From the NCBI GenBank assembly GCA_001938485.1, contig MQRK01222391.1, positions 1 to 64,000 of the forward strand: a DNA stretch of 64,000 nucleotides. Reading direction: 5' to 3'. Both the position numbers and the translations under genes were made by a program. This stretch comes from Girardia tigrina (taxonomy: Eukaryota). The first letter of the stretch is position 1. Every line of letters starts with the position of its first letter. The notes under the pieces were generated by a model that was not told where the DNA came from, searched no databases, and saw nothing but the letters and a program-made list of their open reading frames with translations. Below are positions 4,601 through 8,119 of this stretch, in pieces.

Positions 4601-4759
4601 ATTAAGTGATAGTTGCCGAGTAATAGTCACTACCGATGAAAAAAATCTTAGTTTAGATATGAATAATAATGAATAGTCAAAATAAAAGATGTTCTGAAAG
4701 AAACAGAAAAAGAAACGGACGAAACAAACGGAGAACAGAATTTTCAACCAACAGTAATA

Positions 4760-6057
4760 TTAGGTGTACAAGTATGAAATGCGGATTAAATTTTGAAAAG
4801 AAATACGTCAAAAACAAAAGAACTATAAAAAAAGCTTTATTCAAAATATGCTCCATTACTAATGATACATTTGTCCCATCTATATCTCAAACTGTGGATA
4901 CCTCGCTAGTATAAGTCTTCCTTTTTTTCCATGAACAATTCATCGACCCATTTTTGCACATTTTCGTAAGAATCAAAGCGCTGCTGAGCAAGTGCGTGAC
5001 CCATCGATGCAAACAAATGGTAATCTGAAGGNNNNNNNNNNNNNNNNNNNNNNNNNNNNNNNNNNNNNNNNNNNNNNNNNNNNNNNNNNNNNNNNNNNNN
5101 NNNNNNNNNNNNNNNNNNNNNNNNNNNNNNNNNNNNNNNNNNNNNNNNNNNNNNNNNNNNNNNNNNNNNNNNNNNNNNNNNNNNNNNNNNNNNNNNNNNN
5201 NNNNNNNNNNNNNNNNNNNNNNNNNNNNNNNNNNNNNNNNNNNNNNNNNNNNNNNNNNNNNNNNNNNNNNNNNNNNNNNNNNNNNNNNNNNNNNNNNNNN
5301 NNNNNNNNNNNNNNNNNNNNNNNNNNNNNNNNNNNNNNNNNNNNNNNNNNNNNNNNNNNNNNNNNNNNNNNNNNNNNNNNNNNNNNNNNNNNNNNNNNNN
5401 NNNNNNNNNNNNNNNNNNNNNNNNNNNNNNNNNNNNNNNNNNNNNNNNNNNNNNNNNNNNNNNNNNNNNNNNNNNNNNNNNNNNNNNNNNNNNNNNNNNN
5501 NNNNNNNNNNNNNNNNNNNNNNNNNNNNNNNNNNNNNNNNNNNNNNNNNNNNNNNNNNNNNNNNNNNNNNNNNNNNNNNNNNNNNNNNNNNNNNNNNNNN
5601 NNNNNNNNNNNNNNNNNNNNNNNNNNNNNNNNNNNNNNNNNNNNNNNNNNNNNNNNNNNNNNNNNNNNNNNNNNNNNNNNNNNNNNNNNNNNNNNNNNNN
5701 NNNNNNNNNNNNNNNNNNNNNNNNNNNNNNNNNNNNNNNNNNNNNNNNNNNNNNNNNNNNNNNNNNNNNNNNNNNNNNNNNNNNNNNNNNNNNNNNNNNN
5801 NNNNNNNNNNNNNNNNNNNNNNNNNNNNNNNNNNNNNNNNNNNNNNNNNNNNNNNNNNNNNNNNNNNNNNNNNNNNNNNNNNNNNNNNNNNNNNNNNNNN
5901 NNNNNNNNNNNNNNNNNNNNNNNNNNNNNNNNNNNNNNNNNTATGAGACATTACATAATTACTCAATATTATGACATCATTGCCTAACCATTGACCTACT
6001 TTTTGCATTGTGCACAATCCGTTTTCTGAAATCCGCATTTCATACTTGTACACCTAA
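4760..6057 (-). mobile_element. mariner (Mos1/mauritiana-like) element, ~1.3 kb, interior mostly a gap
   Basis: 28-bp TIR TTAGGTGTACAAGTATGAAATGCGGATT at both ends, TA duplication at 4758-59 and 6058-59. Transposase C-terminus PSDYHLFASMGHALAQQRFDSYENVQKWVDE on the minus strand at ~4920-5031. Confidence 0.95.
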
Positions 6058-7045
6058 TATCAACGCCACGAAAGAATACAAGCAAAAAGATACAAGAACA
6101 ACAGCGATTGTTAGAATCGATAACTCCGCCACGTGAAAGGAACCATGATCAAAGCGTCGAATTAGAGCAAATAGAAATCGAAACCGAAAATAAGTTAACC
6201 GACAATGACAATGAAGACACCGAGGAAGAAGATCAACTGCAAACGTCCATCAGAGACTTACTCACCAACGTCATAGATCCGAAATTGGAGGCCAGTACGA
6301 GTCAAAACCCCAACACGTCAATCAGATCGCGTTCATAAACTGGAAAAATCTACCAAAGGTCAATTAAACCATTATGGGTGGATATAGACGAGTCATTGGA
6401 AGAAATAATATCAAACCTGCCAACAAGAGAACCAACGAGACCAATATTGAAACAAACCTACATGGATCAGTATGTAGATCGAGAAACAGTGAATCATCTT
6501 GAGACGACGGAACAAGGAGCTCAAACGACAAAGTTTTGGAAACCTGCGCAAGTTCAAGGTAAAAGGAATGCGATAAATATCGATAATGTACCCGGTGCAT
6601 CTAGACGAACTACTCCAAAATTAACACCCAAACAAAGATCATTGGAAGGATTGAAAATACTGAGAAATCAATATACCGACGTACCGATAGGAAATGACAT
6701 GACGGAGATGATATTGGCCGATCAAGTTAGACTAAATATGAAATGGATAACAGGTCAAACATGGAACGTCAGAACAATCAAATTACCATCAAAGAATTAT
6801 CCCTTAAATAAAGTATTGACGGCAATAACAAGGGAAGTCTTCAGAAAAGTCAAAAATCGATTATGATTATTTAGCCAAAGGAAAAGACAAACCGAGGCTA
6901 CAAGTCGCACTCGCATGTGTAGTATCATTCTGTGCTAATAAATGTGAACAGGACTTCCAAAAATGTGAGAAATTAATAAAAACTGCATCAGAACTAGTCA
7001 AGAAATATATTGAACCCGGTATACAATATTTATGAGGATGGGATA

Positions 7046-7546
7046 TGTGAGGAATATTTTAAATTCATTGAATGTGTAAATGTATGGATGCTATATATTG
7101 ATTTAAGTATGTTGAATTTAGAATGGTGATTCCCCCACCCAGATGGAAATTGGTATTTTTTATTAAGTTTAAAGTGATTGACTATTCGAAGATAATTAAA
7201 ATAATCATTTATAAGTTCATATCTTTAATTTCAGAATTAAAATTAAGTTTAATAATTTTTAGTAAAATTTAAATTAAATGCATTTTTAATAATTTGATGT
7301 CATTTTTATTATTTTGGGATTTATTAAAAAATGGTAAAAATTAATATTTTTAATTAATATTTTTTTAGAGATTAAATATTTTAAAAAATAATTTAGAAAA
7401 ATTGTTCGAATAATCGTAATTAAAAACAGAAATAAGAAAACCAATTAGAACGATGGCAAACGATGAAATACCTTCTGATAGTCTTAATGACTCTAAATGT
7501 AATTGCAATAAAGAGTTAAACGAAACTTGTTTAAATGTTCCTAATA
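7046..7546 (+). mobile_element. Solo LTR, family A copy 1
   Basis: Starts TGTGAGGAATATT and ends GTTCCTAATA. Flanks GGATA/GGACA form a 5-bp TSD with one mismatch. Homologous to three other copies in the window. Confidence 0.85.
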
Positions 7547-8119
7547 GGACAATTTTATTGAAGATGGATTACAGCAAGAAGGTGACGATTTCGAAGTATT
7601 ACAAGAAACAACGATTGAACAGATAAGAGAATTAAGATTACCACAAGTTCAAAAAACCTTACAATTAATAGTCATACTGTTGGTGTTCCTGACACAAATT
7701 CATATGAGTCACGCAATACTCAGATGGGACTGCGACAAAAAAAACAAATACGAAAAAAAACAAAACGAAAATAGGCAAACAACAATATTCCTTATTAGAT
7801 ACAGAAGACTGCCCCGAAGCAGAACCACAAGCTTTCATACCAGGAGCAAACAAAACGCACTATTATGTTTATCAAGAATCGGATTATGAAAAAATAAAGA
7901 TGCGAGAGTGCACAGTTTTCAGACAGCGGGTGATAATTAATTGTGGTCATTACAGCTGGTCATCAATCATAGAGGATGGTTTAGAGAAACAGTTAATAAG
8001 AGTACCAGGAAAAGATTGTAGGGATGCATTCGATTACAGAAAAATACAACTCAAACCAGATCTAACGGTGGACGCAACACACAATTCTATAACCTACACC
8101 AAAAAGTTTCGAGCAGGAG

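Follow-up and report, generated by a model that had tools for sequence, protein, structure and literature searches.

The interval 4674-10337 of the window (the whole 64,000-nucleotide stretch of Girardia tigrina contig MQRK01222391.1 analysed here) is very probably a dead and decayed remnant of the middle part of a giant Ty3/Gypsy LTR retrotransposon of the Burro type known from planarians. The gag-Bcl-2-Env-pol layout of its relatives is already described for planarian Burro, and the window copy is a decayed member. A piece-by-piece comparison showed that window segments 4674-4759, 6060-7045, 7547-8119 and 10105-10337 are collinear with residues ~1790-2400 of the frame of G000:C249044, where G000 is the same genome as that of the window and the source of all natural relatives used as comparison copies. 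The full family frame comprises ~5,200 codons, and hundreds of related copies are present in G000. The features of the interval are the following:

4674..4759, plus strand: leftmost preserved part of the polyprotein, corresponding by homology to the acidic linker ahead of the Bcl-2-like domain
4760..6057, minus strand: nested mariner with 28-bp identical inverted repeats and TA duplication
6060..6689, plus strand: acidic, T/P-rich polyprotein linker with TAA at 6336-6338, 63% identical to the G000:C249044 frame from residue 1810 onward
6690..7045, plus strand: most of the predicted Bcl-2-like domain (placed by homology, the fold prediction coming from a natural copy that is unbroken)
7046..7546, plus strand: inserted solo LTR, from an unrelated small Gypsy family, flanked by a 5-bp duplication with one mismatch
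7547..7715, plus strand: end of the Bcl-2-like domain, helix and hydrophobic, predicted internal signal peptide ending in S-H-A
7716..8119, plus strand: N-terminal part of a class III-type (gB/chuvirus-like) fusion glycoprotein (PF24664), 82% identical to residues 2207-2322
8120..10104, minus strand: nested, internally deleted LTR element with TG...CA ends, 5-bp duplication AGGAG and a minus-strand integrase remnant
10105..10337, plus strand: resumed glycoprotein, ending near residue 2400 of the natural frame, 89% DNA identity to G000:C218698

Over 85 nt, the first piece (4674-4758) is 90% identical in DNA to G000:C250674 (E 2e-25), and the match to the element stops at 4674, where it is truncated on the left; on the right, the glycoprotein is cut at 10337 by another Gypsy remnant. 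The glycoprotein piece at 7708-8133 matched the Pfam family PF24664 (Monjiviricetes_fusion) over the curated cut-off (E 4e-12). The two in-frame stops reported in the initial annotation of this DNA are present, namely the TAA in the linker and a TGA at 7033-7035, which falls within the BH2-like motif. The frameshift placed there at ~6855 was likewise found, as a 26-nt loss near 6860 relative to all four close copies covering the site, but the list of lesions proved incomplete: in-frame losses occurred near 6084 and near 7634 (33 nt), and directly behind the signal peptide the frame is shifted by an A-rich insertion of 25 nt near 7735. A 1-nt loss near 10308 causes a further frameshift in the resumed glycoprotein. 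The closest copies, with 80-89% DNA identity, are decayed too, and the window copy alone represents ordinary decay.

Four interruptions were found in the window copy, three insertions and the Gypsy remnant at its right end. Excision of the mariner had been proposed to restore the frame, and indeed the pieces flanking it adjoin each other in natural copies (e.g. G000:C250674). The centre of the mariner is an assembly gap (N 5032-5941, 910 N bases), and a 1,290-nt contig covers both of its ends; its minus-strand ORF carries a motif by which we take it to be a C-terminal transposase remnant. The insert of ~500 bp is a true solo LTR, as had been supposed, since two copies of it in direct orientation enclose a TGG primer site, zinc knuckles, an integrase and a purine tract in G000:C222923; it gave 2,137 candidates, and the 40 of these that were scored all matched it with 94-100% identity. 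The window contains older copies of this LTR as well, at 35231-35678 and near 23515-24349. The third insertion (8120-10104) had been overlooked. The integrases at 9095-9565 and 10390-11229 (both on the minus strand) were considered as the pol of the Burro-like element and rejected, being only 34% and 24% identical to the family integrase, so that the window contains neither pol nor LTR of the glycoprotein-bearing element, as had been stated before. By eye, the integrase remnant cutting the glycoprotein (10303-11292, minus strand) is like the integrase of the Gypsy family to which the 7046-7546 LTR belongs.

The Env piece gave 1,815 candidates in G000; all 150 that were scored matched, and flanking sequences were fetched for 54 of these. 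Extension of the paralogues in the 5' and 3' directions, as suggested by the initial annotation, recovered gag, protease, reverse transcriptase (RT), RNase H, integrase, the membrane anchor and LTRs. The natural copies encode, in this order, a Ty3-type capsid, two CCHC zinc knuckles, a ubiquitin-like stretch, the Bcl-2-like domain, the predicted internal signal peptide, the gB/chuvirus-type glycoprotein, its membrane anchor, protease, a dUTPase-like segment, RT, RNase H and integrase. Pfam matches of the natural frames were Ty3_capsid (E 1e-5, under the cut-off), zf-CCHC, PF24664 (E 2e-82), aspartyl protease, RVT_1, RT_RNaseH, Integrase_H2C2 and rve. The ubiquitin (E 0.001-0.009) and dUTPase (E 0.003) matches were weak and under the Pfam cut-offs, and they stand at the places published for Burro. 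The interval from Gag to the Bcl-2-like domain in L032:5201-8899 contains one weak ubiquitin match and two more stretches that look ubiquitin-like by eye. The closest solved RT was that of Ty3 (E 2e-75), among listed structures that contain no Bel/Pao RT and hence offer no direct contest.

The copy at C241284:17122-48116 is bounded by LTRs with TG...CA ends and a 4-bp target duplication and is ~31 kb long as assembled (with N gaps inside). Its LTR parts are 98-100% identical to each other and are followed by a primer site, which presumably is of the tRNA-Pro type; a gap-free 3' LTR of ~3.7 kb was found in C192026. The frame of G000:C249044 is open over 4,142 residues, crossing N gaps, and the frame spans 5,137-5,358 codons in three copies, 5,137 codons with two knuckles in subfamily B. 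The 44 Env pieces form at least three groups, A accounting for 36 of the 44 rows (the window and a six-row subgroup included) and B for 8, and the window falls within the A-type group of the tree. The window's own subfamily is tied to integrase by a single copy, C226661, where Env and the integrase end are joined over an internal deletion.

Because no gap-free, stop-free single copy was seen, the claim of one ORF rests on junction counts. Among the 54 copies, the Bcl-2-to-Env junction was open in 32 (including two copies from which the markers were taken and two with a partial marker match), in frame with a stop in 13, shifted in one and covered by an N gap in eight. The stops are dispersed, with two positions represented twice and three stops inside Env. 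At the Env-to-protease junction 13 copies were open, one had a stop, five were shifted at differing places, three had an N gap and 32 did not carry both markers, i.e. 13 of the 22 copies carrying both markers were open. A programmed Env/pol frameshift in subfamily B was considered and rejected, as the two shifted copies differ in the place of the shift and two others are open. The counts show open frames on each side of Env, which is thus part of the polyprotein in both directions and stands between gag and pol, and the domain order of the natural copies makes it an internal component of a Ty3/Gypsy element. The Bcl-2-signal-Env fusion also occurs in an independent metagenome protein, P0001, the only match among 5,209 candidates of similar length in a protein search with Env that gave none among 3,937 longer candidates and no named relative.

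Purifying selection acted across the Bcl-2, signal and Env segments (dN/dS 0.06-0.19). The pooled dN/dS values were 0.22 for the linker (20 of 23 copies), 0.19 for Bcl-2 (28 of 31), 0.11 for the signal (35 of 40), 0.12 and 0.06 for Env (26 of 26 and 10 of 10), 0.12 for the post-anchor part (6 of 7) and 0.02 for protease (4 of 4), as calculated only from copies that had no N, one stop at the most and more than 60% identity, in pairs that are non-independent.

These data bear directly on two other explanations of the fusion. The initial annotation had described the 3' end of a single-ORF Bel/Pao or Cer-type element of an undescribed lineage, with env behind integrase. Its internal signal peptide (as a prediction), in-frame env and single-ORF polyprotein with a captured viral-type envelope are borne out by the natural copies, and the glycoprotein family is, according to the available literature, that of the Pao elements of mosquitoes. 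However, in 13 of the 22 two-marker copies counted above Env runs on in open frame into protease, RT, RNase H and integrase, which places the envelope in the middle of the frame; the domains are Ty3-type, no Bel/Pao Gag or protease family was among the Pfam matches of the natural frames, and the layout is in print both for planarian Burro (PMC6431247) and, as far as the available text of PMC13524379 goes, for GAG-ENV-POL flatworm errantiviruses. We regard such a 3'-terminal arrangement as very improbable. An endogenised gene of a chuvirus-like RNA virus or a DNA virus, with G as a separate ORF, would agree with the best Pfam family being a Monjiviricetes fusion protein and with the viral Bcl-2 homologues among the fold matches described below, but it is hardly credible: the Pfam matches of the flanking frames include no L, N or DNA-virus family, the flanks being gag and pol; neither a conserved stop nor a separate start precedes the signal peptide in the fetched copies; and LTRs, a primer site and a target duplication are present.

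The segment of ~400 residues upstream of the signal peptide, correctly recognised earlier as fused in frame with the glycoprotein, had been called an unknown protein, and its ~150-residue part next to the signal is now predicted to fold as Bcl-2. The profile of 22 unbroken natural copies matched Bcl-xL (E 0.003), and the structure model of the natural domain reached pLDDT 75 and pTM 0.68. With this model, all Foldseek rows shown were Bcl-2 family members (best E 0.003, none under 0.001), and in the VIA fold ranking of 48,161 chains, ranks 1-26 were occupied by the Bcl-2 family, the best with Z 11.9, rmsd 3.5 and 129 aligned residues, a Z below the value of about 13 under which VIA advises caution with helical folds. 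The top fold matches are pro-survival members; viral Bcl-2 homologues were among the matches, as was vaccinia A52 (Z 9.2). Pfam detected no Bcl-2 family match in three single natural copies, and the best result of a single-sequence PDB search with the Bcl-2 region was only E 0.65. The BH2-like GW motif is invariant in 22/22 aligned copies, the BH1-like motif is diverged, and a helix of ~30 residues separates the domain from the hydrophobic segment. An anti-death role is not assured because of the diverged BH1-like motif and this helix, and we consider the activity probable with some reserve.

Of 43 copies, 42 have Ala at position -1 of the hydrophobic segment preceding Env and 41 have Ser/Ala at -3, and these residues of the predicted cleavage site are kept across subfamilies that are 26-27% identical in the region. 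No conserved Met stands ahead of the hydrophobic core, and 25 of the 43 copies have no Met in the preceding 23 residues. According to hydropathy, the 4,142-residue Gag-to-integrase frame of C249044 contains exactly two hydrophobic segments, which flank Env. One such segment at each end of Env points to cytosolic Gag-Bcl-2, lumenal Env and cytosolic Pol, the predicted lumenal part of Env comprising 548 residues with 14 Cys and 3 sequons. In the proposed mechanism, the Gag, ubiquitin-like and Bcl-2-like parts would be synthesized in the cytosol, and the hydrophobic segment would likely act as an internal signal peptide threading the glycoprotein into the ER, where signal peptidase would cleave behind the conserved Ala. 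The glycoprotein anchor would bring protease, RT, RNase H and integrase back to the cytosol, the Pol enzymes then being freed there by the element's own protease. Such a membrane topology would account for an Env within a Gag-Pol polyprotein. A single frame would imply a Gag:Env:Pol ratio of 1:1:1, an unusual ratio that counts against this reading.

Cellular Bcl-2 proteins are tail-anchored. After cleavage, the signal may stay on the Bcl-2-like domain as its C-terminal membrane anchor, and the product, being anchored like cellular Bcl-2, would likely blunt the death of the producing cell, while the glycoprotein may let particles move from cell to cell. A different function of the same element is possible, although we incline away from it: the Bcl-2-like domain may be a scaffold, a matrix-like part or a poxviral-type inhibitor of immune signalling rather than anti-apoptotic, or Env may be intracellular and the element non-infectious. 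The diverged BH1-like motif, the A52 match, a dN/dS above that of Env and the absence of particle and expression evidence would fit these functions, but the invariant GW and the pro-survival top matches speak for an anti-death domain, and in the related Burro1 a different domain reportedly shields stem cells from apoptosis (Lee et al. 2026, as cited in the available part of PMC13465017).

In L033:6413-9064 (G000:C249044; also in L041 and L035) the frame extends ~1,000 residues beyond integrase and includes a second signal-like segment, ~530 residues and a membrane anchor. This region is present in both subfamilies (24-34% identical) and gave 157 matches in G000. Its model is of low confidence (pLDDT 56) and contains repeated beta-sandwiches with only generic Ig/FN3 matches (best Z 7.8); the structure-atlas search with this domain was empty and the PDB profile search gave one weak match. 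The post-integrase product is thus a low-confidence candidate for a second, Ig-like surface protein. In subfamily A, about eight same-strand coiled-coil ORFs of 105-155 residues lie between the primer site and gag (G000:C249044:10769-16532), and the array is kept among copies (C231567, C214077, C191956 and C241284); none of these small ORFs had a Pfam match reaching the cut-off. As a tentative and rather unlikely extension of the Burro-type reading, Burro-like elements might be enveloped planarian stem-cell viruses with one multi-pass polyprotein and an entry system of two proteins, a class III fusogen and a post-integrase, in-frame attachment protein or receptor decoy of tandem Ig/FN3-like domains, where the fusogen signal anchors a death-blocking Bcl-2. 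Should the post-integrase surface protein and the membrane-anchored Bcl-2 both function as predicted, the giant retroelements of planarians would offer a test case for a retrotransposon spreading between cells while sparing the host stem cell.

In dugesiid planarians, Burro/GYPSM1 giant Gypsy elements were described to carry BCL2 and then an in-frame Env between gag and pol (Arkhipova and Yushenova 2019, PMC6431247). Compared by description, the family shares with them a length of about 30 kb, an ORF1 of ~5,000 residues, CCHC Gag, upstream accessory ORFs and a BCL2-like domain directly before Env; the weak ubiquitin-like match and the weak dUTPase-like match between protease and RT would agree with the published motifs. 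Subfamily B resembles in particular the Dugesia tigrina element of that work, whose ORF1 has 5,140 aa and two knuckles. To this layout, earlier reported from motif searches, the present family adds support at the level of fold and selection. Burro1 has MATH/TRAF, BIR and ankyrin domains; no Pfam match to these was obtained in the frames scanned here, which are gapped and in which the last downstream ORFs and the pre-gag region of subfamily B were partly scanned. The coiled-coil ORFs of subfamily A are a difference from Burro, and the post-integrase membrane proteins are unmentioned in the Burro section of PMC6431247.

The mosquito elements with chuviral G and the nematode Atlas virus are said to be of the Bel/Pao type with a 3' env. 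Both are LTR elements with a captured RNA-virus-type glycoprotein (Dezordi 2020, PMC7642597; PMC9094657), and the present family differs from both in its Ty3/Gypsy pol and internal Env. Chary and Hayashi (eLife 2026, PMC13524379) reported GAG-ENV-POL errantiviruses with HSV/gB-type Env from Platyhelminthes, Nematoda and Bryozoa; in the available text they are similar to our family in being Ty3/Gypsy elements with gB-type Env and gag-env-pol order, and their six Schmidtea mediterranea Env rows share, by eye only, the YVYQES-type motif, GMRF and TNY.G. The words "Bcl", "polyprotein" and "in-frame" do not occur in the main text of that article as available. In the literature available, no paper brought together Bcl-2, env and a signal peptide with a planarian LTR retrotransposon; Grohme 2018 and Lee 2026 may cover the subject. 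A likely dual use of the Env signal as Bcl-2 tail anchor may be new, and so may be the second Ig-like surface protein behind integrase and the coiled-coil ORFs ahead of gag.

The family was contained in two of the five listed RNA runs, which are from one study and consist of contigs only (a natural copy divided into 30 bins is covered in 30 of them by one run and in 29 by the other); another run showed zero coverage of the natural copy. These two runs, X1 and X2, are leaf-litter metatranscriptome assemblies, in which the family and other window repeats appeared mostly with 90-99% identity. In window 1-12000 they covered the repeats, the mariner and the solo LTR included, and left the host exon uncovered, so the RNA is indistinguishable from carried-over DNA; splice joints supported by X1/X2 contigs were not found.

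At 1169-1700 (plus strand) the window contains the final exons of a serine/threonine phosphatase gene of the host (Metallophos, E 2e-19), presumably PP1-like. A weak HTH_Tnp_Tc5 match marks a Tc5/pogo-like transposase remnant at 2400-3400 (minus strand), and two more elements with long inverted ends were seen at 55718-56769 (119 nt, 99%, around an N gap) and at 12049-12869 (90 nt, 93%).
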